Source of the DNA: Phycicoccus sp.
GTDB taxonomy: Bacteria > Actinomycetota > Actinomycetes > Actinomycetales > Dermatophilaceae
Reading direction: 5' to 3'
Length of the DNA: 25,549 bases
Assembly: GCA_035702545.1 (NCBI GenBank)
Contig: DASSQJ010000159.1
Coordinates: 1-25,549 of the forward strand
Shown: positions 3,087-24,891 of the stretch, piece by piece
How positions within the stretch are numbered: position 1 is the stretch's first letter
Layout: the number at the start of each line of letters is the position of its first letter
Program-made: the position numbers and the translations under genes
The notes under the pieces: generated by a model
Database searches by the model: none
Told to the model about the DNA's origin: nothing
What the model saw: only the letters and a program-made list of their open reading frames with translations

Positions 3087-3565
3087 GCGGCGACGGCGCG
3101 CCGGCGGTCGTCATCCGCGGCGCGGTCGCGACCGACCTACCGGAGCTGAGGCGCGTCTACCGGGAGGCCTCGCTCGGCAACGCCGGGGACGCCCCGATGC
3201 TGCTCGCCCGTCCCGAGCTGCTCGTCCTGGCGGGCGAAGGGGTGGCGGAGGGTCGGACCCGGGTGGCCGTACCGGGCCGCGACCCGCGCGCGCCCGTCCT
3301 CGGCTTCGCGACGTCGGCCGTTGCCGCGGACGGCGAGCCCGAGCTCGAGGACCTGTTCGTCGACCCGCGCTGGCAGCGACGCGGCATCGCCCGACTGCTG
3401 GTCCTCGACGCCGCACGATCGGTCCGCGAGACGGGACACCGGCGGCTGTGGGTCACGGGCAACCCGCACGCGCTGGGCTTCTACCGCGCCGTCGGCTTCC
3501 TCGGGGACGACGCCGTCGCAACCCTCCTCGGCGAGGGCCTCCGGCTGCACCTCGACGTCAGCTGA
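3083..3565 (+). CDS. GNAT-family N-acetyltransferase
   Basis: LEDLFVDPRWQRRGIARLL (acetyl-CoA-binding motif A) and NPHALGFYRAVGF. ATG at 3083 overlaps the glycosylase TGA (ATGA). Confidence 0.85.
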   Translation: MSGDGAPAVVIRGAVATDLPELRRVYREASLGNAGDAPMLLARPELLVLAGEGVAEGRTRVAVPGRDPRAPVLGFATSAVAADGEPELEDLFVDPRWQRRGIARLLVLDAARSVRETGHRRLWVTGNPHALGFYRAVGFLGDDAVATLLGEGLRLHLDVS

Positions 3566-4142
3566 ACGGACGTCCCTGCGGGTGGAGGAACTCGGCGGGG
3601 TCGAACTCGTCGATGGGGATGACCCGAACCCGCGGGAGCTGCTCGTTGAACGCGTGGACGTCGTACTCGAGGTCGAGGACCTCGAGCCCGTCCTCGGCGA
3701 GCTCGACGAAGCCGTGGTTCCGGAACTCGACGAACCCCGCGACGCCGACGCGCCGTCCGTCGAGGAGGTCGCGCACCTGCCCGACGAAGTCGCCGTCGTT
3801 GCTGACGAGGACCACGTCGGCGTCGTGGTGGCGGAGCTCGGCGAGGGTCCGCTGGATCGCGATGTCGACGACCTTCTCGCCGGGCGCCCCGGAGAGCGCC
3901 ACGGGCCGGTAGCCGATGGCGAGCAGCGCCTGGACGAAGGTCATCGGCAGCTCGTTGTTCGCGGCGAGGAAGAACAGCCCGGTCGCCGGCTGGCCCCACC
4001 GCTCGCGGGTGAACTGGAGCAGCCGCTCCCACCGCGGGCGCTCCTCGGGCCGGGGCCGCCGGCCGAGGATGCTCGTCCCCAGGGTCGCGTCGATGTTCTC
4101 GCCGTCGACGAGGACGTAGGTCTGGCGCGGTTCCTCGGACAT
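3558..4142 (-). CDS. NYN-domain (PIN-fold, LabA/DUF88-like) protein
   Basis: YVLVDGENID, EKVVDIAI and VLVSNDGDF acidic catalytic motifs. Leaderless TAGGCT-N7-ATG start. Confidence 0.85.
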   Translation of the reverse strand: MSEEPRQTYVLVDGENIDATLGTSILGRRPRPEERPRWERLLQFTRERWGQPATGLFFLAANNELPMTFVQALLAIGYRPVALSGAPGEKVVDIAIQRTLAELRHHDADVVLVSNDGDFVGQVRDLLDGRRVGVAGFVEFRNHGFVELAEDGLEVLDLEYDVHAFNEQLPRVRVIPIDEFDPAEFLHPQGRPFS

Positions 4143-4219: not shown

Positions 4220-5989
4220 TCAGTTCTTGGTGATCCGGTCCAGCGGGCCCGGCGTGTACGGCGAGACGTCGCCGAGGTGGTTGGCGAAGGCGTCGATGTC
4301 GAGACCGCCGAAGTACTTGTCGGTCGCCTCCTTGAACACCGGGAAGCCGTCACCGCCGTCGGACAGGAAGTTGTTCGTGACGATGCGGTACGACGTGGTG
4401 TCGCCGATCGGGGCGCCGTCCAGCGTGACCGTCCCGAGCGTGGTGCCCGAGTAGGTGTAGGCGAACCCGTCGCTGACCTGAAGGACCTTCGGGGACAGGG
4501 CGTTCACCCCGCTCCACTGCTCGGTCAGGAGGGTCTTGATCTGGGCGCCCGTCATCGTCATCGACACGAGGTAGTTGTTGAACGGCTGGACCGTGAACGC
4601 CTCGCCGAACGTGACCTGGCCCGGGGCCTCGCCGTTGGACACCTGGTTGTAGGAGAGGTCGGCGCGGATGCCGCCGGGGTTCATGAAGGCGATGACCGGC
4701 TCCTGCCCGCCGGTGACGACCGAGGGGTCGGCGAGCTGGGCGTCGGCGATGAGGTCACCGAGCTGGGACTCCCCGCCCGCGTTCGGGGTTCGGGTGACGT
4801 CCTGGGTGATGCTGCCGAGGACGGTCGCGGCGATCGGCTCGACGAGCGTGTTGTACCGCTCGATGATCGAGGTCTGGACCGGGTCCTTGGGGACGTCCCG
4901 GGTGACGATCATGTTGCTGCCGGCCACCGAGCTGCGGACGATGTCGTTGGTCCGCCGGTCGTACGTGACCGACGTGTCGGTGTAGAGCCGGCCGAAGGAG
5001 GAGGCCGAGGTGACGAGGCGGTCCTGTCCGGCTGGGTCCTTGACGTCGCAGACGTACGGCTGGTGGGTGTGCCCCGTGATGACCATGTCGATCTCCGGGT
5101 CGAGGTTCTTCGCGATGTCGACGATCGGGCCGGAGAGCTCGCCGCCGCCCTGGCAGGTGTAGTCGAACGGCTTGTTCGACGTCGGGAAGCCGCCCTCGTG
5201 GACGAGGACGACGATCGCGTTGACGTTCTTCTTCTTCAACTGCGGCACGAGGGCGTTCGCGGTCTCCACCTCGCCGCGGAACTCCAGGCCTGCGATGCCC
5301 GAGGCGGTGACGATGTTCGGGGTGTCCTTGAGCGTCATCCCGATGAAGGCGATCCTCGCGCCGTTGCGGTTGATGATCGTGTACGGCGGGAGCACGGTGT
5401 TGCCCGTCGAGGTCTCGATGACGTTGGCCGCGAGGTACTGGAAGTCGGCACCGCCGAAGGAACCGTCGGGGCACGAGTTCTGGTTGGCCTGACCGTCGCC
5501 GTCGTCGATGCAGCCCCCGGCCTGGAGACGCTGGAGCTCCTTGTAGCCCTCGTCGAACTCGTGGTTCCCGACCGCGGAGGCGTCCAGGTGCAGGGCGTTC
5601 ATCGACTCGATCGTCGGCTCGTCGTGGAACGCCGCGGAGAGCAGCGGGCTCGCGCCGACGAGGTCGCCCGCGGCGACGGTGATCGAGTTCCGGTGGCCCG
5701 CACGGGCGTCCGCGAGGTGCGTGGCGAGGTACTCCACCCCGCCGGCGTCGACGTTCCCGGTCTCGGTGAGGATCCGCCCGCTCGAGCCGCTCGGCGGCTG
5801 GAGGTTCCCGTGGAAGTCGTTGAAGGAGAGGATCTGGATGTCCATGAGCGGGCCCTGGGCGTTGGGCGAGGCGTTCGAGCCTCCCGCGGGAGCGGCGGTG
5901 GCCGGCGCGGAGAGCGCGGTCGCGGCAAGCGCGGCGGCGCAGGCGCCCGCGAGACCGGCTCCCGCGAGCCGGCGGGTCAGGTGTGACAT
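4220..5989 (-). CDS. Secreted 5'-nucleotidase / bifunctional metallophosphatase (UshA-like)
   Basis: Signal peptide (TRRL, Ala-rich, A-T-A cleavage), NDFHGNL, AGDLVGASP, GNHEFD, GHTHQ, then a C-terminal 5'-nucleotidase domain (NPGGIRADL, QPFNN, TNNFLSDGGDGF). RBS AAAGGGGA. Confidence 0.93.
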   Translation of the reverse strand: MSHLTRRLAGAGLAGACAAALAATALSAPATAAPAGGSNASPNAQGPLMDIQILSFNDFHGNLQPPSGSSGRILTETGNVDAGGVEYLATHLADARAGHRNSITVAAGDLVGASPLLSAAFHDEPTIESMNALHLDASAVGNHEFDEGYKELQRLQAGGCIDDGDGQANQNSCPDGSFGGADFQYLAANVIETSTGNTVLPPYTIINRNGARIAFIGMTLKDTPNIVTASGIAGLEFRGEVETANALVPQLKKKNVNAIVVLVHEGGFPTSNKPFDYTCQGGGELSGPIVDIAKNLDPEIDMVITGHTHQPYVCDVKDPAGQDRLVTSASSFGRLYTDTSVTYDRRTNDIVRSSVAGSNMIVTRDVPKDPVQTSIIERYNTLVEPIAATVLGSITQDVTRTPNAGGESQLGDLIADAQLADPSVVTGGQEPVIAFMNPGGIRADLSYNQVSNGEAPGQVTFGEAFTVQPFNNYLVSMTMTGAQIKTLLTEQWSGVNALSPKVLQVSDGFAYTYSGTTLGTVTLDGAPIGDTTSYRIVTNNFLSDGGDGFPVFKEATDKYFGGLDIDAFANHLGDVSPYTPGPLDRITKN

Positions 5990-11685: not shown

Positions 11686-12588
11686 GTGCGCGGACGGTGG
11701 GTGGACGAGCTCATCGTCCGGACCCGGCGTGAGGTCGACGACCTGCTCGCGCGCGCTGACCGGCGGCCGGTGCTCGGCGTCACCCTGCGGATCGTCCGCG
11801 ACCTGCTGAGCATCGACGTCCGCGACCGCATCTTCGGGCTCGCCGGTCAGTCCTTCCTCGCCCTCGTCCCGCTGATGATCATCACGGCCGGCCTGATCTC
11901 GGTGCGGGACGAGGCCGGGCTCGCCGACCTCATCAACGCCCGCCTCGACCTCGACGCGCAGACCGCCCGCACCGTCGAGGTGCTCTTCTCGACCCCGACG
12001 GCGAAGGGGACCGCCTCGGTCCTCAGCGTGCTCATCCTCCTGCTGTCCGTCAACAGCTACGCACGCACGATGCGCCGCAGCGTCGAACGGCCGTGGCACC
12101 TCCCCAAGGCCGGCTGGCGGGCGCAGGCCCACGGCCTGGCCGCGATCCTCGTCTTCATCGCCATGCATTTCTCCATCGCCCTCGTCGCGACCGCCTGGCG
12201 GGGAGGCCCCGCGACGACCGCGGTGCCGGAGGTCGTCGTCCAGACCCTCATGCTCGTCGGCTTCTGGTGGGTCATCACCTTCCTCCTCGCGGCCCGGCGC
12301 ATCTCCTGGCTGCACCTGCTGCCGGGCGCGGTCGCCGGCGGGATCGCCCAGTCCGTGGCGGGCTGGTGGAGCGTCACCTTCCTCCCCTCGATCCTCGAGC
12401 GGCAGACGAGCCGGTACGGGGTCATCGGCGTCTCCCTCGGCATCGTCACGTGGCTGCTCGTCGCGAGCGGCATCACCGTCGGGGTGGGCATCGTCGGAGC
12501 CCGGATCGCGCGGGCCGCGGGATGGCTCACGGTGGAGGAGGAGCAGGAGCCACCGGAGTACCCCGTGGGTCCCCTGTCCGTTCCCTGA
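11686..12588 (+). CDS. YihY/virulence factor BrkB family membrane protein
   Basis: AGQSFLALVPL early helix, about six TM segments, LLPGAVAGG and RYGVIGVSLGIVTWL. CACACT-N6-GTG start. Confidence 0.8.
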   Translation: MRGRWVDELIVRTRREVDDLLARADRRPVLGVTLRIVRDLLSIDVRDRIFGLAGQSFLALVPLMIITAGLISVRDEAGLADLINARLDLDAQTARTVEVLFSTPTAKGTASVLSVLILLLSVNSYARTMRRSVERPWHLPKAGWRAQAHGLAAILVFIAMHFSIALVATAWRGGPATTAVPEVVVQTLMLVGFWWVITFLLAARRISWLHLLPGAVAGGIAQSVAGWWSVTFLPSILERQTSRYGVIGVSLGIVTWLLVASGITVGVGIVGARIARAAGWLTVEEEQEPPEYPVGPLSVP

Positions 12589-12608
12589 GCCGGTGCGCCG
12601 GCCGGCGC

Positions 12609-13787
12609 TCAGCCCGTCGACTCGGTCCGCGCCGGCGTCGGCGACTCCTCGCCGTGCGGTGGCTCGTCGGCGTCGTCGTCGTCCCGGGGGGCGACGAGCT
12701 CCGCGACCTTCTCCTCCGTGGCGGGCGAGAGCTCGTAGCGACGCTTGTAGATCTCGAGCATCGCCATGACCGTCGCCGCGACCGGCACGCCGAGCAGCGC
12801 GCCGGAGAGGCCGAAGAGCTGGGCGCCGAGCAGCGCCGCCCCGAAGGACACGGCGGGATGGAGGTCGACGGCGCGCGCGGAGATCCGCGGCTCGATGGTG
12901 AGGTTCTCGACCTGCTGGTACGCGATGCCCCAGATGAGCGCGTAGACACCGAGGAGCCAGTTGCCGGACGTCAGGCCGACGACGACCGGCAGGGCGATGG
13001 AGATGTAGGTGCCGATGTTCGGGACGAACTGGGCGACGATGCCGGTCCACAGGGCGAGGGGCAGCCAGTACGGCAGCCCGATGACCGCGAAGACGATCGC
13101 GCTGCACACCGAGTTGATCGCCGCGAGGACGATGCGGGCGGCGATGTAGCCGCCGACCTTGATGCGGGTGAGGTCCCAGGCGGCGAGGAACGGCACCTGG
13201 AGGTCCGGCTTCATCCGGCGGGCCAGCCAGTTGCGCAGCCTCGGCATCCCCGCGGAGATGTAGAAGACGAAGAAGGCGAGGACGAAGAGGCCGAAGGCGC
13301 TGGAGATCAGGCTGACGACGAAGCCGATGAGCGCGAAGGCGGCGTCCTGGGCGTAGCCCGCGAGGTCCCCCGGCGCGACGCCGATCTGGTCGAACAGGGT
13401 GTCGAAGGTCAGGGAGGCCCCCGTCACCCGGTTGACCCAGGCGAGGGCGTCCGAGGCCATACCGGGGATCGCCTTGACGAGCTCGACGAGCTGGTTGACG
13501 AAGAGGGCGCCGAACGCGGCGACGAACCCGAGGAAGGCCAGCCCGGCGAGGATCATGACCAGCCCCGTCGCGAGGCCCCGCCTCATCCGCTCCGCCAGCT
13601 TGGCCACGACGGGCTCCATGGCGAGGGCGATGAACCACGCCATGACGACGTTGTAGATCAGGGTGTTGCCGCGCCAGAAGACGAAGGCGACGAACGCGAC
13701 GAGCGCGAGGACGGCGACGACGAGCCAGGTCCGGTGCCACAGCGGGTTGTCCCGGAACCTCGGCGCGCCGGCCGCGGTCGCCTCCAT
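12609..13787 (-). CDS. AI-2E (PerM/TqsA) family transporter
   Basis: AWFIALAMEPVV, AQFVPNIG, YQQVENLTIEPRI...VDLHPAV and GAQLFGLSGALLGVP. ATG at 13787 is preceded by TACATT-N7. Confidence 0.9.
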   Translation of the reverse strand: MEATAAGAPRFRDNPLWHRTWLVVAVLALVAFVAFVFWRGNTLIYNVVMAWFIALAMEPVVAKLAERMRRGLATGLVMILAGLAFLGFVAAFGALFVNQLVELVKAIPGMASDALAWVNRVTGASLTFDTLFDQIGVAPGDLAGYAQDAAFALIGFVVSLISSAFGLFVLAFFVFYISAGMPRLRNWLARRMKPDLQVPFLAAWDLTRIKVGGYIAARIVLAAINSVCSAIVFAVIGLPYWLPLALWTGIVAQFVPNIGTYISIALPVVVGLTSGNWLLGVYALIWGIAYQQVENLTIEPRISARAVDLHPAVSFGAALLGAQLFGLSGALLGVPVAATVMAMLEIYKRRYELSPATEEKVAELVAPRDDDDADEPPHGEESPTPARTESTG

Positions 13788-13794
13788 GGGGGCA

Positions 13795-13800
13795 AATGTA
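13795..13800 (-). promoter_or_regulatory. -10 hexamer TACATT, leaderless promoter of the AI-2E gene
   Basis: TACATT lies 7 nt before the ATG. Confidence 0.6.
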
Positions 13801-13867
13801 GGGCTCGCGGCGCCGGCCCCGCAGGAGCAGCCGGCACTCGGGGCGCCGTGGTCCCGTGAGCGCCGGG

Positions 13868-14683
13868 TCAGGTCGTCAGCGGGGCGTGGCGGTTGACGTC
13901 CTTGTACAGCAGGTACCGGAACGGTCCGGGTCCGCCGGCGTAGCAGGCCTGCGGGCAGAACGCGCGCAGCCACATGAAGTCGCCCGCCTCGACCTCGACC
14001 CAGTCCGTGTTGAGCAGGTAGACGGCCTTGCCCTCGAGGACGTAGAGCCCGTGCTCCATGACGTGGGTCTCCGGGAACGGGATGGCGCCCCCGGGCTGGA
14101 AGGTGACGATGTTGACGTGCATGTCGTGGCGGAGGTCGTCGACGTCGACGAACCGGGTCGTCGACCAGGCGCCGTCGGTCCCCGGCATCCCGGCGGGCTC
14201 GACCTCGCGCTCGTGCGTCACGAAGGCCGGGGGCGCGCCGAGCCCGTCGACCGGCCGGTAGGCCTTGCGGATCCAGTGGAACGTCGCCGTGTCGCGGGTC
14301 GGGTTGTGCACCTGCCACGACGAGGAGGGGGGGATGTAGGCGTAGCCGCCCGGGCCCATCGGGTGCGGCTGCCCGTCGAGCGTCAACGTGACGGACCCAC
14401 CGACGACGAAGAGGACGCCCTCGGCTGCGGGGTCCGGCTCGGGGCGGTCCGCGCCCCCACCGGGAGCGACCTCGACGAGGTACTGGCTGAAGGTCTCCGC
14501 GAACCCCGACAGGGGGCGCGCCAGGACCCACAGCCGGGTCCGCTCCCACCCGGGGAGGTACGAGGCGGTGATGTCGCTGAGGGTGCGCCCCGGGATGACC
14601 GCATAGGCCGTCGTGAAGACGGCGCGGTCCGTGGTGAGCGCGGTCTGGGGCGGCAGTCCGCCCCGGGCGACGTGGTAGCTCAT
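13868..14683 (-). CDS. Allantoin-catabolism bicupin (bifunctional allantoicase/(S)-ureidoglycine aminohydrolase type)
   Basis: GGLPPQT..TTDRAVFTTAYAVIP, LWVLARPLSGFAETFSQY, HDMHVNIVTF, ETHVMEHGLYVLEGK and YLLYKDVNRH. ATGA overlap with allB, RBS GAGGAGAGG. Confidence 0.9.
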   Translation of the reverse strand: MSYHVARGGLPPQTALTTDRAVFTTAYAVIPGRTLSDITASYLPGWERTRLWVLARPLSGFAETFSQYLVEVAPGGGADRPEPDPAAEGVLFVVGGSVTLTLDGQPHPMGPGGYAYIPPSSSWQVHNPTRDTATFHWIRKAYRPVDGLGAPPAFVTHEREVEPAGMPGTDGAWSTTRFVDVDDLRHDMHVNIVTFQPGGAIPFPETHVMEHGLYVLEGKAVYLLNTDWVEVEAGDFMWLRAFCPQACYAGGPGPFRYLLYKDVNRHAPLTT

Positions 14684-16017
14684 CGGTGTCCTCTCCTCAG
14701 CAGTCGTCCGCGGGGCGCGGCCTCGTCGACGGGACGTCCGCGCAGCCAGGTCTCCCGGACCACGCCGGTGAGCCGCCGACCGTCGTAGGCGCAGACCGGG
14801 TTCCGGTGGTGCAGCCTCGCTGCGTCGACGGTCAGCGGCTCGTCCGGGGCGAAGCGCACGAGGTCGGCGTCCGCGCCGACCTCGATCCGACCCTTGTGGG
14901 TGAGGCCGACCCGGTCGGCCGGGCCACGGGCCATCCACCCGACGACGTCGGCGAGCGAGTGACCACGGTCCCGGGCTCCGGTCCACACGGCCGGCAGGGC
15001 GAGCTGGAGGGACGCGATGCCACCCCAGGCGAGACCGAAGTCCCCGCCGCCCTCCGCCTTGAGCTCGGCCGTGCACGGCGAGTGGTCGGAGACGACCAGG
15101 TCGACCTCGCCGGCGCCGAGAGCCTCCCAGAGCCGCTCCCGGTTGGCGGCCTCGCGGATCGGTGGGCAGCACTTGAGCTCGGTGGCACCGTCCGGGACGT
15201 GCTCGGCGTCGAAGGTCAGGTAGTGCGGACAGGTCTCGACGCTGACGTCGGTGCCGGCGGCCCGCGCCTCGCGGAGGAGGGGGACGGCGCCCGCGCTGCT
15301 CAGGTGCGCGATGTGTACCCGGCCGCCCGCGGCGGATGCCTCGCGGAGGACCCGGGCGATCGCGGCGTCCTCCGCGGCGGGCGGGCGGGACGCGAGGAAG
15401 CCGGCGTAGCGCCGTCCGGTCAGTGCTCCGGGGTCGAGCCGGTCGCCGTCCTCGGCGTGCACCATGAGCAACGCGCCGAGGGCCGCCGTCCCCCGGACGG
15501 CGGCGGCGAACCCCGTCGGGTCGAGGTGCCCGAACTCGGCGACCCCCGAGTCGACGAGGAAGCACTTGAACCCGAACACCCCCTCGTGGTGCAGGGGCGC
15601 GAGGTCGTCGAGGTTCCCGGGGACCGCGCCGCCCCAGAAGCCGACGTCGATCCCCACCCGGCCCGTGGCCACCCGCCGCTTCTCGGCGAGCGCGGCCACC
15701 GTCGTGGTCGGGGGGACGGAGTTGAGCGGCATGTCGAGGATGGTCGTCACGCCCCCGGCGGCTGCCGCCCGGGTGGCGCTCTCGAAGCCCTCCCACTCGG
15801 TGCGGCCCGGCTCGTTGACGTGCACGTGGGTGTCGACGAGCCCGGGCAGCAGGACCTCGTCGTCGTCGAGGGTGACGACGCGCCGCGCCATGGGAACCGC
15901 GTCGTAGGCGGTGATCGTCGCGACCTGCTGGCCGGCGACACCGACGGCGGCCGGGGCCTCGGACCCGTCGAGGACGACGCGTCGGGCCCGGACGACGACG
16001 TCGAGCTCAGCTGCCAC
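14680..16017 (-). CDS. allB: Allantoinase
   Basis: PGLVDTHVHVNEPGRTEWEGF, AAAAGGVT..DMPLNSVP, FKCFL, HIAHLS, ETCPHYL, KCCPPIR and VSDHSP amidohydrolase motifs, in a purine-catabolic operon. GTG start at 16017 is inferred. Confidence 0.93.
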   Translation of the reverse strand: MAAELDVVVRARRVVLDGSEAPAAVGVAGQQVATITAYDAVPMARRVVTLDDDEVLLPGLVDTHVHVNEPGRTEWEGFESATRAAAAGGVTTILDMPLNSVPPTTTVAALAEKRRVATGRVGIDVGFWGGAVPGNLDDLAPLHHEGVFGFKCFLVDSGVAEFGHLDPTGFAAAVRGTAALGALLMVHAEDGDRLDPGALTGRRYAGFLASRPPAAEDAAIARVLREASAAGGRVHIAHLSSAGAVPLLREARAAGTDVSVETCPHYLTFDAEHVPDGATELKCCPPIREAANRERLWEALGAGEVDLVVSDHSPCTAELKAEGGGDFGLAWGGIASLQLALPAVWTGARDRGHSLADVVGWMARGPADRVGLTHKGRIEVGADADLVRFAPDEPLTVDAARLHHRNPVCAYDGRRLTGVVRETWLRGRPVDEAAPRGRLLRRGHR

Positions 16018-16312
16018 GGTAGGTGGAGTAGCCGTAGGGGCTGAGGAGGAGCGGCACGTGGTAGCGCTCGTCGGCCCCGTCGAGCGTGACGACGACGACG
16101 ACCTCGGGGTATAACCCGCCGCGGTCGCCGAGGTCGAAGCGCAGCACGACCGCGCCGGCGGTCGGGGGGAGGGGCATCGCCGCGACCCGGCCGTCGTCGT
16201 CGGTGACGCCCCGGCCGATGAGCTCACCCTCGCGCGTCTCCGCCCGGACGGGGATGCCGGCGGCGGGCCGGCCCGCCGCCAGGTCGAGGACGTGGGTGGA
16301 CAGGACACTCAC
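16007..16312 (-). CDS. uraH: 5-hydroxyisourate hydrolase (transthyretin-like)
   Basis: LSTHVLD..GRPA, TDDDGR and the C-terminal YHVPLLLSPYGYSTYRGS signature. Confidence 0.95.
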   Translation of the reverse strand: MSVLSTHVLDLAAGRPAAGIPVRAETREGELIGRGVTDDDGRVAAMPLPPTAGAVVLRFDLGDRGGLYPEVVVVVTLDGADERYHVPLLLSPYGYSTYRGS

Positions 16313-16749
16313 AGTGCCGCCTCCAGTCGGAGCAGTGCGATCTCTCGCAGGTTGTCGACGGTCTCGGCCCGCTCGGTGGCCTCGTCGTTGCCGAGCCTGC
16401 GCTCCAGCTCGGCGAGGACCTCGTCGGCGTCACGGCCCGCCGCGCGGATGAGGAAGACCCGCCCGAAGCGGGCCTCGTACGCCGCGTTGCCGGCCGCCAG
16501 GCGGGCCCGGACGTGCGCCGACGTCCCCACCCCGGCCTGCTCGCGCTGGGACTGCGCGCCGCCGCGCTCGCCGATCCGGGGATGACCGGCGAGGGCCTGC
16601 ACGAGCTCGTCGTCGGTGAGCACCTGCGCCGCGCGGTCGGCGGCGGCGAGGAGGGCTGCCCGCGACTCGTACGGCTGCCCCGCCAGCACGTCGTCGACCC
16701 ACCGGGGCACCGCGAGGCAGGAGGTGAGCACCTCCGGCGTCGTCCGCAT
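16309..16749 (-). CDS. uraD: OHCU decarboxylase
   Basis: ALAGHPRIGE, SQREQAGV, NAAYEARFGRVFLIRAAGR and LREIALLRL. Located between uricase and HIU hydrolase. Confidence 0.93.
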   Translation of the reverse strand: MRTTPEVLTSCLAVPRWVDDVLAGQPYESRAALLAAADRAAQVLTDDELVQALAGHPRIGERGGAQSQREQAGVGTSAHVRARLAAGNAAYEARFGRVFLIRAAGRDADEVLAELERRLGNDEATERAETVDNLREIALLRLEAAL

Positions 16750-17636
16750 CAGCAGAACCCCGCGACGCCGAGCCAGGCGTCCGCAGCGGGTCGGGCACCG
16801 TCGCGCAGGACCTCGGCCTCGATGAGCCCGTAGGGACGGTCGGCGGCGATGAACACCTCACCGTCGTTGGTGAGGTCCTCGACGCGGAAGCCGCTGAAGT
16901 CGACGAGGAAGTGGTGCTTGTTGGGTGCCGAGAAGCGCACTTCGGACACCGACGGCTCCGCGTCGAGGACGGCGCAGCCCATGGCGTAGAGCGTCTCCTG
17001 GAGGGCGTGCGAGTAGGTGGCCGCGAACGTCCCCGTCAGGGTCGAGAGGACGGCCCGGTACGAGTCGTTCCAGTCCACTCCCTCGGCGCTCGAGTGCCGC
17101 CACCGAGCGACGAGTGACGTGGACAGGATCCGATCGTCCGTCTCGGCGAGCGTGGTGAACTCGTCCTTGAGGAACCCCTTGAACTCCGAGCCGGTCGAGC
17201 TGAGCACGACGAGGTCGCGCAGCCCCGAGACGACGTGGGTCTCGTCGCGGCCCACGGTCACCACCGCGGTGCGGACCGGGCCGCCACGCCGGATGAACGA
17301 GTGGTCCCCCAGCCGGTCCCAGTCGTGCTGCTCGACGCGCACGTCCGCGTGCGTGGCCGCCGGGCACGCGTCGAGCAGGCGCCGGCCGAGCGCGAGCCCG
17401 TAGTCCTCCGGCGACTCGATGCCGTGCAGCTTGGCGTAGGCGAAGGCGGTGTTCTTCTGGGTGTCGGTCGGGAGGACGGCCGCCTGGTTCCCCTCGGTGT
17501 GGGCGGCCGCGAACTCGCCTCGGAGCGAGGTCGACACCGTGAGGTCGCGGATCTCGTGGCGCGCCGTGTCCCGGACGATGCGGACGACCCGGCTCTCGGC
17601 CTTGCCGTACCGGTTGGCTCCGAGGGTGTGGGCCAT
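16749..17636 (-). CDS. pucL: Factor-independent urate oxidase (uricase)
   Basis: NRYGKAE, VLPTDTQKNT, STGSEFKGF, TDDRILST, LQETL, PNKHHF and DRPYGLIEA. Confidence 0.95.
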   Translation of the reverse strand: MAHTLGANRYGKAESRVVRIVRDTARHEIRDLTVSTSLRGEFAAAHTEGNQAAVLPTDTQKNTAFAYAKLHGIESPEDYGLALGRRLLDACPAATHADVRVEQHDWDRLGDHSFIRRGGPVRTAVVTVGRDETHVVSGLRDLVVLSSTGSEFKGFLKDEFTTLAETDDRILSTSLVARWRHSSAEGVDWNDSYRAVLSTLTGTFAATYSHALQETLYAMGCAVLDAEPSVSEVRFSAPNKHHFLVDFSGFRVEDLTNDGEVFIAADRPYGLIEAEVLRDGARPAADAWLGVAGFC

Positions 17637-18914
17637 CTAGACCTCCTGGGGTCGGTGGTGGGCGAGCGCACGAAGGTCGGCCCGACCGAGGCCCGCGCCG
17701 GCCTCGACCTCGCGCTCCTCGACGGCACCACAGTCGAGGCCGCGCAGCAGGTACGTGGCGAGGGCGCGCGCCGTGGCGGGCTCGTCGGCGATCGTCGCCA
17801 TCGTCCGCGCCCGGTAGTCGGCGAGACGGGCGAGGGCACCAGCAAGCCCTTCGCGGTAGAAGGAGTACGTCGCGGCGTACCGCGTCGGCAGCTGCGCCGG
17901 GTGGAGGTCCCACCCCTGGGGGAACCCCCGCTCCAGGGAGCGCCGGACGAGGCGGTGGTGGGTGGCCCAGCCGTGGGCGACGGCGTCGGCACCCCCGACG
18001 GGGAGGATGTTGGTGGACCCGTCCGAGAGCCGGACGCCGGTCCCCGCGGCCGCGGCCTGCATGACGAGCTTGGCGTGGTCGGCCACCGGGTGCTCGAGCG
18101 ACTGCTGGCCGGCGGCGATCCCGCAGGACGCGGAGTAGTCGTAGGTGCCGTAGTGCAAACCGGTGAGGCGCGGGCCGGCGGCGTGCACCATCCGGGCGAC
18201 GAGCGCCGTGCCGTCGGGCCCGAGGACCGACTGGGGTGTCTCCACCTGCACCTCGAACCGCAGGACTCCCGGGCGCAGCCCGAACGCCTCCTCGAGGCGC
18301 CCGCACGCGTGCACCATCGCGTCGACCTGGTCGACGCTCGTCACCTTCGGGAGCGTCACCACCCAGTTCTCCAGGCTCGCCCCGAGCTCGACGAGGGCAC
18401 CGACGTGGGCGGTCAGCGTCCGCACCGCGCGTTCCCGGGTCGGGCGCTCGAGGCACTTGACGCGGATGCCTCCGAACGGCGCGGCGCATCCGCGGACCTG
18501 CGCCTGGGCCATCGCCACCGCGGCCCGGACGGCATCGGCGTCCTCGTCGGCGTCGGTGCGCCCGACGTAGCCGTCCTCGAAGTCGACGCGGACGTCCTCG
18601 ACCGGCTCACGGCCGAGCTTGTCGCGGACGCGCGCCACCACGTCCGCGTCGGCGACGAGGGCGGCGAACGCGTCGGCGTGCGCGTCGAGGGTCGTCAGCG
18701 CCTCCCGCCCCCACGTGGGCACGGTGTCGACGCCGAAGCGGTCGGCCGGCACGTACACCGTGTGCACCGGCTGCCTGCCCTCGCGTTCGCCGGGGTAGGA
18801 CGCGGCCCGGGCCGCGTCGGCGGCCGCGAGGCGCGCGTCGAGGTCGGCGGTCAGCGAGGTGGCGAGCGCCGCTGCGAGCGCGGCGGCCGAGGGACCGGCG
18901 GTGGGGTCGGTCAT
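17637..18914 (-). CDS. HpcH/HpaI aldolase / citrate-lyase-beta (CitE)-fold protein, function unassigned
   Basis: [45 protein letters not shown] and [11 protein letters not shown] correspond to CitE-like DLED/PKV/ET/G..D motifs. ATG at 18914 overlaps the glcB TGA, and its TAG abuts the uricase ATG. Confidence 0.8.
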
Positions 18915-21097
18915 CGGCGGACCGGCCCTCGGGCGGACTTCACGGCCCGGCGGTGCCGGTGGAGGATCGGCTCGGTGTAGCCGGACGGCTGGTCGAGCCC
19001 CTCGAGGACGAGGGCGCGGGCCGCGGCGAACGCCTCGCCGTCGTACGTCGGTCCCATCGGCAGGTAGCCCTCCCCGGCCTGCTGGCGGTCCACGACGTCG
19101 GCCATCCGGCGCAGCGACTCCTCGACCTCGAGGGCGGTGACGACGCCGTGGTGCAGCCAGTTGGCGACGTGCTGGCTGGAGATGCGGCACGTCGCCCGGT
19201 CCTCCATGAGCGCGGTGCCGTGGATGTCCGGGACCTTGGAGCAGCCGACGCCGTCGTCCACCCATCGCTTCACGTAGCCGAGGATGCCCTGCAGGTTGTT
19301 CTCGAGCTCGGCGACCCGCTCGTCGGGCGACCAGGACGGGTCGTCGGCCAGGGGCACGGTGAGCAGCTGCTCGAGCGTCGTCCGTCGCCCGCCCGCCAGG
19401 TCGCGCTGACGAGCCGCGACGTCGACCCGGTGGTAGTGGAGGGCGTGCAGCGTCGCCGCGGTGGGTGAGGGCACCCAGGCGCACGAGGCGCCGGCCTCCG
19501 GGTGGGCGACCTTCTCCTCGAGCATCGCGGCCATCTCGTCCGGCATCGCCCACATGCCCTTGCCGATCTGCGCCCGACCGCGGAAGCCGCACGCGAGGCC
19601 GATGTCGACGTTCTGGGCCTCGTAGGCGCGGATCCACTCGGTCGACCTCATCTCGCCCTTGCGGATCATCGGGCCGCCGTGCATCGAGGTGCGCAGCTCG
19701 TCGCCCGTCCGGTCGAGGAAGCCGGTGTTGATGAAGGCGACCCGCCCCCGTGCCTCGTGGATGCAGGCCTTGAGGTTGGCCGAGGTGCGTCGCTCCTCGT
19801 CCATGATGCCGAGCTTGACCGTGCCCCTCCGCAGCCCGAGCAGGTCCTCGACGGCCGCGAGGAGGTCGTCGGTGAAGCGGACCTCCTCCGGGCCGTGCAT
19901 CTTCGGCTTCACGACGTACACCGACCCGGCCCTCGAGTTGCGCAGCGTGTTCCGGCGCTGGACGTCGACGAGGCTGCCCAGGGCGGTCATGACGGCGTCG
20001 AGGATGCCCTCCGGCACCTCGTCGCCGTCACGGTCGAGGACCGCGTCGGTCGTCATCAGGTGGCCGACCTGGCGGACGAACATCAAGGAGCGGCCGGGGA
20101 GGACGACGGGGCCGTCGGGGCCCTCGTAGTGGCGGTCCGGTGCGAGTCGTCGGGTGAACGAGGTCCCCTCCTTGGTCACCTCGGCGCTGAGCGTCCCGCG
20201 GTTGAGGAGCAGCCAGTTGCGGTAGCAGGCGACCTTGTCCTCGGGGTCGACGGCCGCGACGGAGTCCTCGAGGTCCATGATCGTCGAGACCGCGGCCTCG
20301 AGCAGGACGTCCCTGACGCCGGCCGGGTCGTCCCTGCCGACCGGGTCGGCGCGGTCCACCTGGATCTCGACGTGCAGGCCGTGGTGCACGAGCAGGACCG
20401 CGTCCGGCGCGCGGGCGTCGCCCCGGTGGCCGACGAACAGCGTCGGGTCGGCGAGTCCGGTCCTGCCGTCGGGCAGCTCGACCCCGAGGACGCCGTCGGC
20501 CACGCCGTAGCCCTGCGCCTCGGCGTGGCTCCCCCGCGCGAGCGGGAAGTGCTCGTCGAGGAAGGCGCGGGCCCACGCGATGACGACCGCGCCGCGGGCC
20601 GGGTTGTACGACGCCCCGCGCTCGAGGCCGGGCTCCTCCGCCAGGACGTCGGTCCCGTAGAGCGCGTCGTACAACGAGCCCCACCGTGCGTTCGCCGCGT
20701 TGACGGCGAAGCGGGCGTTGAGCACCGGCACGACGAGCTGCGGCCCGGCCACGAGCGCGACCTCCTCGTCGACGTCGTGCGTGTCGATCGAGAAGTCGGG
20801 CGGCTCGTCGACGAGGTACCCGATGTCGCGCAGCCACCGGACGTGGTCCGCCTGGTCACGGACCGGGCCGGGGTGGGTGAGGTGCCACGCGTCGAGCTGC
20901 TCCTGCAGCCGGGCCCGGCGGGAGAGGAGGTCACGGTTGCGAGGGGTGAAGTCCGCGAGGACCTGCTCGAGCCCGCTCCAGAACGCGCCCTCGTCGATCC
21001 CCGACCCCGGCAGCGCCTCGTCGCGGACGAACGCGTGGAGCACCTCGGCGACCTGCAGCCCACCGACGCCGACCCGGCCCTGTCCCGGTGCGGTCAT
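18911..21097 (-). CDS. glcB: Malate synthase G
   Basis: [83 protein letters not shown] and LMEDRAT. 728 aa from the ATG at 21097, RBS GGGAGGGAGG. Confidence 0.96.
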
Positions 21098-21157
21098 CGC
21101 GCCCTCCCTCCCGAGCCTCGGCGCCCGGGTCTCGGGTCGACGGATCGGCAAGGACTC

Positions 21158-21186
21158 AACGTCCCTGACCAGCGACTCCTTGTCAA
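21158..21186 (-). promoter_or_regulatory. Housekeeping-sigma promoter of the glcB-uricase operon
   Basis: Minus strand TTGACA-N17-GACGTT: a perfect -35 and an nAnnnT -10, about 60 nt upstream of the glcB ATG. Confidence 0.7.
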
Positions 21187-21192
21187 CGCCCC

Positions 21193-21214
21193 GGCGCACC
21201 CCCGCGGGTGCGCC
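21193..21214 (-). terminator. Hairpin between the NTF2-like gene and the glcB promoter
   Basis: GGCGCACCC-N4-GGGTGCGCC, a perfect 9-bp stem 15 nt after the stop at 21230. No U-tract. Confidence 0.5.
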
Positions 21215-21229
21215 CACCCGCGCGCTCGG

Positions 21230-21628
21230 CTACTCCGGCGGGGCGCTGCCGTGGCGGTGGGCCACCCTCCACTCGCCGTCCTCGCGGCGGTAGACCTGGG
21301 TCGCACGCAGTGTGTACGTACGCGGCACGCCGTCGACGGAGGCCGAGGTGTGCTCGAACGCCACCGTGTACGCCGTGTCGCCACGGACCTCGGACTCGAG
21401 CAGCTCGAGCTCGAAGGACGTGCAGTCCGAGAAGCTCGCGGCGAGGTGGGCGAAGAGCTCGTCGAGCTCCTGCTGCCCCATCGCGTTCCGCCAGGCGCCG
21501 AGCACCGTCACCGGGTCCCTGCGCGACCAGAGAGCACGCCGCGGCCCTGCGTCCCCGTCGTGGATGGCGACCTCCGCGTCCCGGAGGTCGGACCGCACCC
21601 ACGCGATGAACTCCTCGTGCTCGGTCAT
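21230..21628 (-). CDS. NTF2/SnoaL-like (DUF4440-type) protein
   Basis: 132 aa with GDTAYTVAFEH and TLRATQVYRREDGEWRVAHRHGS, typical of the NTF2-like C-terminus. GACGAT-N7-ATG start. Confidence 0.85.
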   Translation of the reverse strand: MTEHEEFIAWVRSDLRDAEVAIHDGDAGPRRALWSRRDPVTVLGAWRNAMGQQELDELFAHLAASFSDCTSFELELLESEVRGDTAYTVAFEHTSASVDGVPRTYTLRATQVYRREDGEWRVAHRHGSAPPE

Positions 21629-21739
21629 GGGGCCGATCGTCCCACCGGTGTGAGGTTCCAGCCAGAGGCGGCGGGGCCGGTGCCTTCGAGCGGGATGCTG
21701 GACCCGGGCCGGGTCGTCCCCGGCCGGTCGGAGTGCACC

Positions 21740-22249
21740 ATGAAGGCCGTCGAGGCTGCCGTGCGCGTGGCCACCGGGCAGCCGGGTCCACCGCGGAGTG
21801 GGTGGCTGGCCTTCACCCTCGCGGGAGCGGCCGCGTTCTGGACGACCAACCTCGCCATCTCGCTGACCCCGGTGGCCGCCGCCTACCGCGCGGCGATGTC
21901 GATCGAGTACGTGGCCATGCTCGTCGAGGCAGCCGTGGGCGGCGTCGTCCTCGCGGGCGTCGTGGCGCTGCTGCTCGTGCGGTTCCCGCACCGGGTGCCC
22001 GGCACCGGCCCGGTCAGCAGGGCGATGCTGCTGGCGACCTGCGCACTGGTCGTCGTCACGCTCGCCCTCGAGGTGCCCGCGAAGCTCGGCGCGGATGTCG
22101 ACGACCCCTTCCGGTGGCTCCTCGTCGCCACGGCCTTCAACGCGATCCGCGTGCTTGCCCTCGGCCTCGCCATCGGGCTGGTGGCTCGTGCAGGCGAAGC
22201 CCGGCGCCGGAGCCCCCGGGCGGCAGAGAGCAAGGAGAGAACGTCATGA
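21740..22249 (+). CDS. Hypothetical membrane protein (about 4 TM)
   Basis: C-terminal part of ORF 19502..22249. ATG at 21740 follows GGAG, four hydrophobic stretches are present, and the stop overlaps the next ATG (ATGA). Confidence 0.7.
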   Translation: MKAVEAAVRVATGQPGPPRSGWLAFTLAGAAAFWTTNLAISLTPVAAAYRAAMSIEYVAMLVEAAVGGVVLAGVVALLLVRFPHRVPGTGPVSRAMLLATCALVVVTLALEVPAKLGADVDDPFRWLLVATAFNAIRVLALGLAIGLVARAGEARRRSPRAAESKERTS

Positions 22250-22965
22250 CCGTCACGACCACCGCGGGGACGACCGCCACCCCGAGCTCGTGGGACCGCA
22301 TGAGGGTCGCCCGGTGGGCCGGGGGCCTGTACCTCGCCTACATCCTGGCCAACGTGCTCGCCAGCCTGACCGGCCACATCGGGCTCAGTGACGCCCGGAC
22401 GCTGCGCGCGACGATCGCGGACGACGAGGCGATGTTCCGGGTCGGCCTCGTCGCGGCCCTCGCCTCGGCCCTGCTGTTTGTCGCCACCGCGTGGGCCCTG
22501 TACATCCTGCTCCGCCCCGTGGACGACGCCCTGGCCCTGCTGCTCCTCGTGCTCAACGCGGTGGGGGTGGCCGTCCAGTGCGCCAGCTACCTCCCGCTCC
22601 TCGCCGTGCTCGCCCAGGCCGAGGGCGGGGCGGACCTGGCGGGCCTGACCGGCCAGCAGCTCCACGGACTGGCGATGCTCTCGGTCACCACCCACCAGGT
22701 CGGCTTCGTCACCGCCCAGCTCTTCTTCTCCGCCTGGCTCTTCCCCCTCGGCTGGCTGGTGCTCCGCTGCCGGTTCCTCCCCCGGCTCCTCGGGTGGCTC
22801 CTCCTCCTCGACGGAGTCGCGGTCCTCGTCTGGTTCCTCCAGACGCTCCTCGCCCCGGAGTACCGCGCGATCAGCTATCCCTCCTGGGTCGTGGGCTTCG
22901 TCGCCGAGGTCGGACTCGCCCTGTGGCTCCTCGTCAAGGGCGCCCGTTCCGCGCCGAGCAGCTAG
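22246..22965 (+). CDS. DUF4386-family membrane protein
   Basis: ARWAGGLYL, FRVG, AWALYILLRPVD..LALL, FFSAWLFPLGWLV.RCRFLPRLLGWLL and AEVGLALWLLVKG. RBS AAGGAGA. Confidence 0.8.
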   Translation: MTVTTTAGTTATPSSWDRMRVARWAGGLYLAYILANVLASLTGHIGLSDARTLRATIADDEAMFRVGLVAALASALLFVATAWALYILLRPVDDALALLLLVLNAVGVAVQCASYLPLLAVLAQAEGGADLAGLTGQQLHGLAMLSVTTHQVGFVTAQLFFSAWLFPLGWLVLRCRFLPRLLGWLLLLDGVAVLVWFLQTLLAPEYRAISYPSWVVGFVAEVGLALWLLVKGARSAPSS

Positions 22966-23906
22966 TCGGGGAGCTCGCTCGGCAGCACCACGGCGTCGAC
23001 CAGCGCTCCGTTGCGGATGACGGTGACCTCCATCCGCCGTCCGATGGCCTCGCCGAACAAGTGCTTCTGCAAGGACTGCGCGTCCCCGAGGGGGGCACCG
23101 TCGATGGCGAGGACGAGGTCACCGGCGAGCAGGCCGCTGCGGGCGGCAGGACTGCCCTCGACCACCTCGACGATCCGGAGGGCGACCCGCTGGCGGTACC
23201 GCTCGGCCTGGGTGGGGGTCAGCCGCGCAGGAGTGCTCACGAGGCCGAGGTAGGCGCGCCGGACGCGCCCCTCGTGCATCAGCGCGCCGATGATGCGATG
23301 CGTCGTCGCGTTGATCGGGACCGCCATCCCCAGGCCGACTCCGGCGACGGCCGTGTTGATCCCCACGACACGACCCCGGCTGTCTGCCAGGGCACCCCCG
23401 GAGCTGCCCGGGTTGAGGGCGGCGTCGGTCTGGATGACGTCCTCGATGAGCCGGGCCGTCGTCCGGGTTCGGACCGGCATGCTCCGGCCGAGCGCGCTCA
23501 CCACGCCGGCGGTCACGGTGCCGGAGAGGCCCAGGGGGTTGCCGACGGCGACCACGAGGGAGCCGACGAGGAGCGAGCCCGCGTCGCCCAGCTCCGGCGG
23601 GGCAGGCACGTCCCGGTCCGCCCGGACCACCGCGAGGTCCGACAGCGGGTCACGGCCCACGACGTCGACGTGGGCCACGGTGCCGTCGGCGAACTCCGCG
23701 GTCCCCTCGGTGGCATCGCCGACGACGTGCGCGTTGGTGATCAGGTGCGAGTCGCTGGTGAGCACCACGGCCGAGCCCGCCGACTCCCCCCGCGACGACC
23801 GGATCCGGAGCGCGGCCACCTTCGGCGTCAACCGCGCCGCGACCGACGTCACGATCGCCGAGTAGGCATCCAGAGCGTGCGCCTCTGCCGCCGGGTCGGT
23901 GCTCAT
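22962..23906 (-). CDS. HtrA/DegP-like S1C serine protease with one PDZ domain, no export signal
   Basis: Triad motifs ITNAHVV, DPLSDLAV and QTDAALNPGSSGG; PDZ motifs RRAYLGL and GSPAARSGLLAGD. 314 aa from the ATG at 23906. Confidence 0.9.
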   Translation of the reverse strand: MSTDPAAEAHALDAYSAIVTSVAARLTPKVAALRIRSSRGESAGSAVVLTSDSHLITNAHVVGDATEGTAEFADGTVAHVDVVGRDPLSDLAVVRADRDVPAPPELGDAGSLLVGSLVVAVGNPLGLSGTVTAGVVSALGRSMPVRTRTTARLIEDVIQTDAALNPGSSGGALADSRGRVVGINTAVAGVGLGMAVPINATTHRIIGALMHEGRVRRAYLGLVSTPARLTPTQAERYRQRVALRIVEVVEGSPAARSGLLAGDLVLAIDGAPLGDAQSLQKHLFGEAIGRRMEVTVIRNGALVDAVVLPSELPD

Positions 23907-23913
23907 GGCGGTA

Positions 23914-23941
23914 CAACGAGCCCGGTGGTGGACGGGATTCC
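23914..23941 (-). promoter_or_regulatory. Possible SigR/SigH-type ECF promoter of the protease
   Basis: Minus strand GGAAT-N19-GTTG ends 7 nt before the ATG. The spacer is one nt longer than the usual GGAAT-N18-GTT. Confidence 0.4.
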
Positions 23942-24045
23942 GCCACTTCACCGAGGGCGGACCTCGCCCTGTCCGCCCCGGCCGCCCGACCAGCCGGTCG
24001 ACACGTTCATGGCTCCTTCTCAGGTACCGGCGCCACGATGGACCG

Positions 24046-24891
24046 GTGAGCACTCCTCCGCGGGAGCCTGCGCCGTCGCGTCGGCTCGCGCTCGGCGCCG
24101 GTGCGGTGCTCGGCGCCGGGGCGCTGCTCGGAGCGGCCGGGTGCAGCGGACCGGCCCCGGCGGCACCGGGCCCCAGCTCGGCAGCGCCCGGCACCGCACC
24201 GACCCACGAGCCACCGGCGACCGCCCAGCCGACGTCCGCGCCCGCCACGAGCCCCGTCCCGGACCCGCGCCCGTCCGTGGCGTCGTCGCGGGGTCCGGAC
24301 ATCGTCTCCGGCCCCGGGACCCGTGACGAGGTCGCCCTCACCTTCCACGGCCAGGGAGCGGCCGTCCTCACGGACGCGGTCCGCGCGGCGTGCCGGGAGG
24401 CCTCCGCCGCCATCACCGTCTTCGCCGTCGGCACCTGGGTGGACGCGGACCCGGCACTGGCCGTCGCCCTCCTCCGGGACGGGCACGAGGTGGGCAACCA
24501 CACGTGGAGCCACCAGCAGATGCCTCGGCTCGACCCCTCGGCCGCGCGCACCGAGGTCCGCAGGGGTCGAGACGCACTGACCCGCGCCCTCGGGAGCCCG
24601 GGCTGGTGGTTCCGGCCGTCCGGCACCCAGCACAGCACGGCGACCATCCGGTCGGCGGCCTGGGCGAACGGCTACGCCCGGTGCGTCTCCTACGACGTCG
24701 ACCCCCACGACTACCTCGACCCCGGCGCCAAGCTCGTCCGCACCCGGGTCCGGCGAGCCGTCCGCGCGGGGTCGATCGTGTCGCTCCACCTCGGCCACGC
24801 GGGGACCGCCGAGGCCCTCCCGGGGATGCTGTCCGACCTGGCCGCGATGGGCCTGCAGCCCGTCACCCTCTCCCGCCTCCTGCGCGACTGA
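24046..24891 (+). CDS. CE4/NodB polysaccharide-deacetylase-fold lipoprotein (atypical motif 1)
   Basis: SRR twin-arginine-like signal with lipobox AAGC, Pro/Ala/Thr linker, VALTFHGQG, GNHTWSH, WFRPSG, YDVDPHDY and IVSLH. CACGAT-N6-GTG start. Confidence 0.85.
   Translation: MSTPPREPAPSRRLALGAGAVLGAGALLGAAGCSGPAPAAPGPSSAAPGTAPTHEPPATAQPTSAPATSPVPDPRPSVASSRGPDIVSGPGTRDEVALTFHGQGAAVLTDAVRAACREASAAITVFAVGTWVDADPALAVALLRDGHEVGNHTWSHQQMPRLDPSAARTEVRRGRDALTRALGSPGWWFRPSGTQHSTATIRSAAWANGYARCVSYDVDPHDYLDPGAKLVRTRVRRAVRAGSIVSLHLGHAGTAEALPGMLSDLAAMGLQPVTLSRLLRD

Follow-up and report, generated by a model that had tools for sequence, protein, structure and literature searches.

In most purine-degrading Actinomycetota, Streptomyces included, no gene has been assigned to the step that turns ureidoglycolate into glyoxylate. 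Which enzyme might carry out this step is the question raised by a stretch of 25,549 nucleotides (nt) from Phycicoccus sp. (contig DASSQJ010000159.1, in the following the window), where a gene for a 425-amino-acid (aa) protein of the DUF6986 family (P0001) lies between the genes for malate synthase G and uricase. A preliminary description of this sequence had offered two alternatives for the gene, either a new TIM-barrel class of ureidoglycolate lyase or an enzyme condensing glyoxylate with another acyl-coenzyme A (acyl-CoA). On the basis of genome context and fold, we propose that the DUF6986 gene probably encodes a Mg2+-dependent (S)-ureidoglycolate urea-lyase (EC 4.3.2.3). The lyase alternative is the one best supported by computation, given the failure to find AllA and AllD in the closest complete relatives, the restriction of the family to ureidoglycolate-making genomes and the existence of a eukaryotic precedent (PMC10120013). 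Glyoxylate condensation with another acyl-CoA is less likely.

The ureidoglycolate step in the operon and in the phylum

Seven coupled minus-strand genes make up the operon, in the order glcB, DUF6986, uricase, uraD, uraH, allB and a bicupin gene, and every junction between them overlaps or abuts (Table 1). Each step from urate to ureidoglycolate is covered, and malate synthase is added to these. The identities of the genes were derived from NCBIfam equivalog models and from reading of the junctions; they bear out the uricase, UraH, UraD, AllB and malate synthase G named in the preliminary description, while the cupin that had been taken for an allantoicase type is a bicupin (S)-ureidoglycine aminohydrolase. 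One of the models passed by the bicupin, NF040771, carries the name 'bifunctional allantoicase/(S)-ureidoglycine aminohydrolase', and this name together with the lack of AllC suggests that the bicupin probably converts allantoate to ureidoglycolate alone. Neither this genome nor four complete relatives with the same DUF6986 and bicupin arrangement (G163, G009, G394 and G111) yielded a true AllC, the best match in the relatives scoring 224 bits against a cut-off of 598, so that the bicupin would have to cover the conversion of allantoate to ureidoglycolate.

Known consumers of ureidoglycolate were searched for in the same genomes. As the preliminary description had stated, the window holds no gene of the AllA type (PF04115), and none was found in the remainder of the assembly, which is 75% complete and consists of 379 contigs. 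The four relatives likewise yielded no AllA and no AllD/Ldh_2 match over the cut-off, and G009, a 100% complete genome, has not a single M20 match of the AllC/UAH-like kind. Urease is present in all four. Since AllA, AllD and AllC were not found in these relatives, ureidoglycolate is left without a known consumer.

For phylogenetic profiling, which had been suggested as a check, 401 genomes of the phylum were used, and completeness reaches 90% or more in 396 of these. DUF6986, allantoicase, bicupin and AllA were searched for, and full-length DUF6986 was defined by E < 1e-100. The family is present at full length in 34 genomes and as one fragment at a contig end (G122), distributed over 13 families. 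Allantoicase was found in 41 of the 401 genomes, the bicupin in 8 and AllA in 10, and ureidoglycolate is made by 49. All 35 DUF6986 holders make ureidoglycolate: 30 do so via allantoicase, and the remaining five are exactly those with the bicupin. Conversely, DUF6986 is present in none of the 352 genomes without allantoicase and bicupin (Fisher p 2.5e-39, a value that is overstated since relatives are not independent). The match is exact also in mixed families, comprising the same 4 of 20 genomes in one (f16) and the same single genome of 24 in another (f22). Full-length DUF6986 and AllA never co-occur in the sample; one weak AllA match is found in G122, the holder of the partial DUF6986. These tallies include one unpublished holder (G088; 34 of 34 holders without it), and the unpublished genomes G001, G048, G316 and G392 enter as non-holders only. 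The ureidoglycolate step is indicated because DUF6986 is tied to two non-homologous enzymes that share only their product, ureidoglycolate.

The profile ties DUF6986 to the ureide pathway and not to one substrate, and one may therefore consider another Mg2+-dependent reaction at the end of this pathway, such as an aldol reaction between glyoxylate and pyruvate, similar to that of 4-hydroxy-2-oxoglutarate aldolase, or cleavage of another 2-hydroxy acid derivative, e.g. one related to oxalurate. A weak HpcH/HpaI aldolase match of P0001 (25.9 bits) is in line with such a reaction, but it is borderline and barely at the cut-off, and the structural neighbours presented below belong to the lid-bearing CitE/malyl-CoA lyase branch and not to the lid-less pyruvate aldolases. 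The distribution is more specific as well: because DUF6986 follows both of the routes that converge on ureidoglycolate, and is missing where the genes allG and allH adjoin the bicupin (G386), the step from ureidoglycolate to glyoxylate is pointed to. A reaction of the aldolase type or on another substrate appears improbable to us.

The neighbourhoods of DUF6986 genes were compared in 80 related loci with 10-kb flanks, 35 of them from outside the Streptomycetaceae and 45 from within. Genes for uricase, uraD, uraH, bicupin, allantoicase, xanthine dehydrogenase or malate synthase A are found nearby in all 35 loci of the former group, which includes Nocardioides, Actinocorallia, Terrabacter, Microlunatus, Arthrobacter, Pseudarthrobacter, Nonomuraea, Nocardiopsis, Amycolatopsis, Prauserella and Pseudonocardia. 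Uricase follows about 300 bp or less downstream in 18 of these loci, and malate synthase A precedes by about 100 bp in 11. In G009, G394 and G111 the bicupin gene comes immediately after DUF6986, and in 12 genomes from nine families allantoicase lies within 1-3 kb of it. The arrangement looks common in this phylum, and the earlier view of an unusual branch of purine catabolism had to be abandoned.

A glyoxylate-releasing role fits these neighbourhoods, since the malate synthases with which DUF6986 is paired are glyoxylate consumers. The same pairing, by an ATGA overlap with glcB here and by the short distance to malate synthase A in the 11 other loci, would also accommodate a bifunctional enzyme that catalyzes the condensation as well as the lyase reaction, or one that joins malate synthase in a complex through which glyoxylate is channelled. 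The retained candidate for the lid aspartate described below is compatible with this, and an ancestral bifunctional enzyme has been discussed by Dembech et al. (PMC10120013). However, most Nocardioides-type loci have no adjacent malate synthase, DUF6986 stands alone in the Streptomycetaceae, and a DUF6986 protein able to condense glyoxylate itself would make a separate malate synthase superfluous. Bifunctionality or channelling is accordingly given very little credence here.

Predicted fusions and distant members extend the picture. A metagenomic protein of 578 aa (P0125) contains full-length DUF6986 followed by a full-length OHCU decarboxylase in a predicted single polypeptide, either as a true fusion or through a gene call that reads past a stop; fusions of DUF6986 with allantoicase and with an amidohydrolase were also predicted and are possibly artefactual. 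Distant members of the family (38-46% identity) are found in mixed contexts. In L128 the DUF6986 gene overlaps allantoicase, in L129 it lies opposite a complete operon of allantoinase, allantoicase, uraD, uraH and a PuuD-type gene, and in L124 and L131 it immediately follows uraH. Other phyla were sampled through 13 contigs, of which four show purine context, five show none and four are uninformative (three too short and one without Pfam data).

Fold, active site and proposed reaction

P0001 is a full-length DUF6986 protein (PF22484, E 1.2e-158, 528.7 bits against a cut-off of 27), its residues 29-421 covering profile positions 1-407 of 408. The preliminary description had called the gene an orphan, which holds for its function, as none is assigned, and fails for its kinship, as the family is large. 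At least 7990 relatives were counted (7990 of 8000 scored candidates at E <= 1e-5), labelled in their sources as 'aldolase', 'citrate lyase beta subunit' or 'DUF6986 family protein'. When representatives of clusters at 50% identity are counted, 1896 reach E <= 1e-3 and 501 reach E <= 1e-30, and the atlas clusters are chiefly from Actinomycetota and Acidobacteriota. P0001 gave no match to malate synthase (PF01274) at E <= 0.01 and none to AllA (PF04115). NCBIfam release 20 contains no named model for DUF6986. No publication on DUF6986 was found in a search whose coverage excluded subscription journals, nor any paper mentioning SCO1083, which may be the locus tag of the Streptomyces coelicolor copy.

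The CitE/malyl-CoA-lyase fold given in the preliminary description was recovered in an AlphaFold2 model built from an alignment of 62 diverse DUF6986 members (mean pLDDT 96.4, pTM 0.92). Malyl-CoA lyases ranked first among its structural neighbours (Foldseek, VIA-align), with 4l9y at Z 29.0 and a root-mean-square deviation of 2.3 A over 290 residues at 19% identity. These are followed by human CLYBL (Z 28), the CitE-like 3qqw and 3r4i (Z about 27) and a haloarchaeal malate synthase (Z 26), while malate synthase A (Z 24.5) and malate synthase G (Z 21.8) are more remote. The structural alignment spans model residues 35-394 and thus comprises both the TIM barrel and the C-terminal lid domain. About 100 residues are added relative to malyl-CoA lyase, in the form of a helix at the N terminus (10-39) and an inserted helical segment (about 57-105). 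Among Swiss-Prot models no reviewed protein shares the fold assignment, the top matches being malyl-CoA lyases and CitE at a TM score of about 0.55.

Residues common to the CitE-like superfamily and the malate synthases are, in the numbering of malyl-CoA lyase Mcl1, Asp42, Glu44, Asp45, Arg76, Glu141 and Asp168 as ligands of Mg2+, and Asp299 in the lid (PMC3832036). In a profile alignment to 4l9y, E225 and D259 of the DUF6986 protein align with Glu141 and Asp168; they also align with the Mg ligands of GlcB from the window, in a comparison of marginal similarity (hhalign, probability 71%). By profile alignment, the sequence D111-F-E113-D114 falls on the DCEDG motif of 3r4i and R151 on the Arg of its GVRI motif, and the W-x-x-H-P-x-Q motif of the malyl-CoA lyase/CitE-like superfamily aligns too. 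Conservation of these residues is nearly complete among the 62 members, with D111, D114, R151 and D259 found in all and E113 and E225 in 61. A candidate for the lid aspartate is D377, which is present in 60 of 62 members, is situated in the loop ahead of the lid helix (379-395) and coincides with an Asp of 3r4i in the profile alignment. Two positions set the family apart. Asp336, in the sequence GWDLHP, is invariant and specific to DUF6986, with Ala in Mcl1, and residue 258, just ahead of the Mg-binding Asp, is Tyr in 53 of 62 members, Phe in 4 and His in 2. All malyl-CoA lyases have Ala at the latter position, which gives room for the propionyl group, and malate synthase G has Leu454, which limits the size of the acyl group (PMC3832036). 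These features suggest an intact site for Mg2+ and a 2-hydroxy acid combined with an altered leaving-group pocket.

The fold also raises the possibility of an acyl-CoA-dependent glyoxylate lyase or condensing enzyme, which would provide a second outlet for purine-derived glyoxylate. The structures nearest to the model are those of malyl-CoA lyases, CLYBL and CitE-like enzymes (Z 27-29), the full catalytic set is conserved with the candidate lid Asp included, and the sole NCBIfam match of P0001 is a malyl-CoA lyase model (NF041626). That match, however, reaches 22.8 bits against a cut-off of 500, and Tyr replaces the small residue by which the acyl group is given room. CoA-binding residues make mostly backbone and hydrophobic contacts (PMC3832036). 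Genes for a CoA ligase or transferase, or propionyl-CoA genes, are not labelled beside DUF6986 in any of the 35 loci linked to purine genes. One distant member (L122) is found 42 bp behind a family III CoA-transferase. Furthermore, the malate synthase coupled to DUF6986 here and in 11 other loci already does the job, and the restriction of DUF6986 to ureidoglycolate-producing genomes, with none among the 352 others, speaks against such a role. An acyl-CoA substrate is on these grounds unlikely, yet it is the foremost of the alternatives to a urea-lyase.

A urea-lyase fits the chemistry of this active site, because the scaffold binds glyoxylate-type ligands on Mg2+ and breaks a bond beside the metal-bound hydroxyl. 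In the reaction that we propose for the CitE/malyl-CoA-lyase/malate-synthase TIM barrel with its lid, Mg2+ would be held by Glu225 and Asp259 and chelated by the carboxylate and the 2-hydroxyl of ureidoglycolate, with the metal waters and Arg151 positioned by Asp111, Glu113 and Asp114. Arg151 would deprotonate the hydroxyl in the manner proposed for malyl-CoA cleavage. The bond between C2 and N would then be cleaved, and the departing urea could be protonated by the putative lid residue Asp377 or by the family-specific Asp336. Malyl-CoA lyase follows a retro-Claisen course in which an acyl-CoA enolate departs, and the proposed reaction would be the same chemistry with urea as the leaving group. 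The released glyoxylate would be consumed by malate synthase G, encoded immediately upstream, and the operon overall would convert urate to malate, urea and ammonia.

Several observations weigh against a dedicated urea-lyase. DUF6986 is missing from 14 ureidoglycolate producers. Seven of these genomes are split into 340-810 contigs, and in another the sole allantoicase is cut short by the end of a contig. In G368 the bicupin adjoins an M20 amidohydrolase, and in G386 it adjoins the oxamate carbamoyltransferase genes. The G386 locus (L126, C14:15000-32000) contains the bicupin beside a fused FdrA-like/AllG protein, AllH, a major facilitator superfamily transporter and an allantoinase-like amidohydrolase. 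Judged by this gene content, it is an anaerobic oxalurate branch, for which no lyase would be needed. The complete or near-complete genomes G069, G137 and G150 show no replacement for DUF6986. In G137 (locus L125, C1:2304000-2322000) a string of genes close to the urease accessory genes ureF and ureD encodes a class I/II aminotransferase, allantoicase and a PuuE-type allantoinase; neither DUF6986 nor AllA is present, and no candidate for the ureidoglycolate step is visible at the locus. The idea that a dedicated enzyme is always needed is weakened because the genus of G137 shows no such candidate, and the step may need no dedicated enzyme or may be covered by allantoicase.

Gene context adds to these doubts. 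The 45 Streptomycetaceae loci are unlinked to purine genes, and DUF6986 is there placed after etfB-etfA. The string etfB-etfA-DUF6986-LacI-ROK is conserved in Streptomyces, and Kitasatospora-type loci have other, unannotated neighbours (L054-L120). All 11 profiled Streptomyces genomes nevertheless carry DUF6986 plus allantoicase elsewhere. About half of the sampled distant members have no purine context, L038, L121 and L123 among them, and the member in L122 (8001-9380, 41% identity), which follows the CoA-transferase, is located on an Acidobacteria-like contig without purine genes, a finding which hints that some DUF6986 branches may handle CoA esters. FAH-family paralogues are ubiquitous, so that the presence of an FAH-type lyase is unreadable, and M20 ureidoglycolate amidohydrolases are also possible genome-wide; the incompleteness of the Phycicoccus assembly has to be considered as well. 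The nearest solved structures are all acyl-CoA enzymes, and a lid retaining its putative acidic residue is compatible with a CoA substrate. The assignment as a lyase is drawn wholly from context and fold.

If the proposal of a ureidoglycolate urea-lyase is true, the gap at this step would be closed in the phylum, where AllA is found in 10 of 401 genomes against 49 producers, and thousands of proteins now named 'aldolase', 'citrate lyase beta subunit' or 'DUF6986' would gain a function. Pathway reconstructions for the recycling of nitrogen and carbon in soil would be corrected accordingly.

Operon structure and surrounding genes

The translational coupling of the DUF6986 gene on both sides, as first described, is read directly in the sequence. 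The TGA stop of glcB (18913-18911) overlaps the DUF6986 ATG (18914-18912) as ATGA (18911-18914), and the uricase ATG (17636-17634) abuts the DUF6986 TAG stop (17639-17637) as TAG|ATG, with an AGGAGG within the last codons of the DUF6986 gene ahead of the uricase start. GC content at third codon positions is 0.92-0.97 in frame along the entire gene, against an overall GC of 0.74, and the open reading frame is therefore regarded as truly coding. The remaining junctions are a 1-nt overlap between uricase and uraD, GTGA between uraD and uraH, an 11-nt overlap between uraH and allB, and ATGA between allB and the bicupin gene.

Table 1. Features of the operon and of the rest of the window, with the evidence for each
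Feature	Position	Strand	Length and start	Evidence
DUF6986 gene (P0001), candidate ureidoglycolate lyase	17637-18914	minus	425 aa, ATG start	PF22484
glcB, malate synthase G, glyoxylate consumer	18911-21097	minus	728 aa	NF002825 1148 bits (cut-off 565); TIGR01345 1049 bits
Uricase, factor-independent urate oxidase	16749-17636	minus	295 aa	TIGR03383 295 bits (cut-off 168)
uraD, OHCU decarboxylase	16309-16749	minus	146 aa	TIGR03180 154 bits (cut-off 139); PF09349
uraH, 5-hydroxyisourate hydrolase	16007-16312	minus	101 aa	TIGR02962 E 1.7e-24, 86.3 bits, slightly below cut-off 87.45
allB, allantoinase	14680-16017	minus	445 aa, GTG start overlapping uraH stop	TIGR03178 554 bits (cut-off 358)
Bicupin (S)-ureidoglycine aminohydrolase, final coupled gene	13868-14683	minus	271 aa	NF008373 496 bits (cut-off 445); NF040771 477 bits (cut-off 350)
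Intergenic leader of glcB	21098-21229	minus	132 nt	sequence read
AlkZ-like DNA glycosylase	1980-3086	plus		
NYN-domain protein	3558-4142	minus		
5'-nucleotidase/metallophosphoesterase	4220-5989	minus		
Acyl-CoA carboxylase	6088-~11604	minus	~1840 aa	
AI-2E-family transporter gene	12609-13787	minus		
SnoaL-like/DUF4440 protein gene	21230-~21628	minus		
HtrA-like trypsin-PDZ protease	22962-24647	minus		

The glcB gene starts with ATG at 21097, preceded by GGGAGGGAGGG. In its leader an inverted repeat, CAAGGACTC-N16-GACTCCTTG (21149-21182), is partly overlapped by a TTGACA hexamer (from 21186), and this stretch (21149-21191), which lies some 90 nt ahead of the glcB start, may serve as promoter and operator. 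A regulator gene for the putative operator was not seen in the window, and scans of 12500-22000 for consensus promoters and terminators found nothing.

The operon leader is directly preceded by the SnoaL-like/DUF4440 gene, and the AI-2E-family transporter gene is located about 80 nt downstream of the bicupin gene. The acyl-CoA carboxylase combines biotin carboxylase, BCCP, ACC central region and carboxyltransferase domains in one chain; this is a eukaryote-like architecture, and the protein is the C-terminal part of a 2550-codon open frame. One may speculate that the nucleotidase could feed purine nucleosides into the urate pathway.

Comparison with known enzymes

GlcB of the window is a distant homologue of the much shorter DUF6986 protein, and the two would have opposite roles, as GlcB consumes glyoxylate with acetyl-CoA and the DUF6986 protein is proposed to produce it. 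Mcl1 of R. sphaeroides (4L9Y) is similar to the DUF6986 protein in its TIM barrel with C-terminal lid, its D-x-E-D motif, its Arg and its Glu and Asp Mg ligands. In contrast to Mcl1, the genomic association of DUF6986 is with ureide genes and not with CoA-ester pathways. AllA would share both the reaction and the pathway position proposed for DUF6986, but it is a cupin and unrelated to the TIM barrel. A ureidoglycolate lyase of the FAH family (KEGG K16856, Burkholderia) catalyzes the same reaction, likewise with an unrelated fold.

The closest precedent is found in animals, where a paralogue of malate synthase is the ureidoglycolate lyase (UGL; Danio rerio MSL, DrMSL; Dembech et al., PNAS 2023, PMC10120013). 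DrMSL, a protein of 62.5 kDa, carries a peroxisomal signal and belongs to the malate synthase A orthogroup. The UGL clade, which is confined to eukaryotes, is marked by a length of about 560 aa and by the substitutions Arg276Ile and Trp365Met (PMC10120013). The eukaryotic UGL and DUF6986 share the superfamily scaffold and the proposed reaction; UGL was also found through its association with allantoicase and uricase, and it has kept the glyoxylate-binding site. Unlike DrMSL, the DUF6986 protein belongs to a different Pfam family, has 425 aa and no PF01274 match and lies outside the UGL group, and its model is nearer to malyl-CoA lyase (Z 29) than to malate synthase A (Z 24.5). Furthermore, DrMSL is active without metal, whereas DUF6986 keeps both Mg ligands invariant or nearly so.

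A bacterial recruitment would be independent of the eukaryotic one, since DUF6986 represents a different branch, nearer to CitE and malyl-CoA lyase, and the UGL clade is limited to eukaryotes. We are slightly inclined to view DUF6986 as a further, independently recruited class of ureidoglycolate lyase, to which the last step of purine breakdown would chiefly fall in Actinomycetota and, beyond them, in other phyla, e.g. Acidobacteriota. Bacteria and eukaryotes would then have converged on a scaffold for binding Mg2+ and glyoxylate, taken from different branches of one superfamily, from which urea is expelled and not an acyl-CoA enolate. DUF6986 would, if this is true, be the second independent case of an active site of the malate-synthase/CitE type turned to C-N cleavage.

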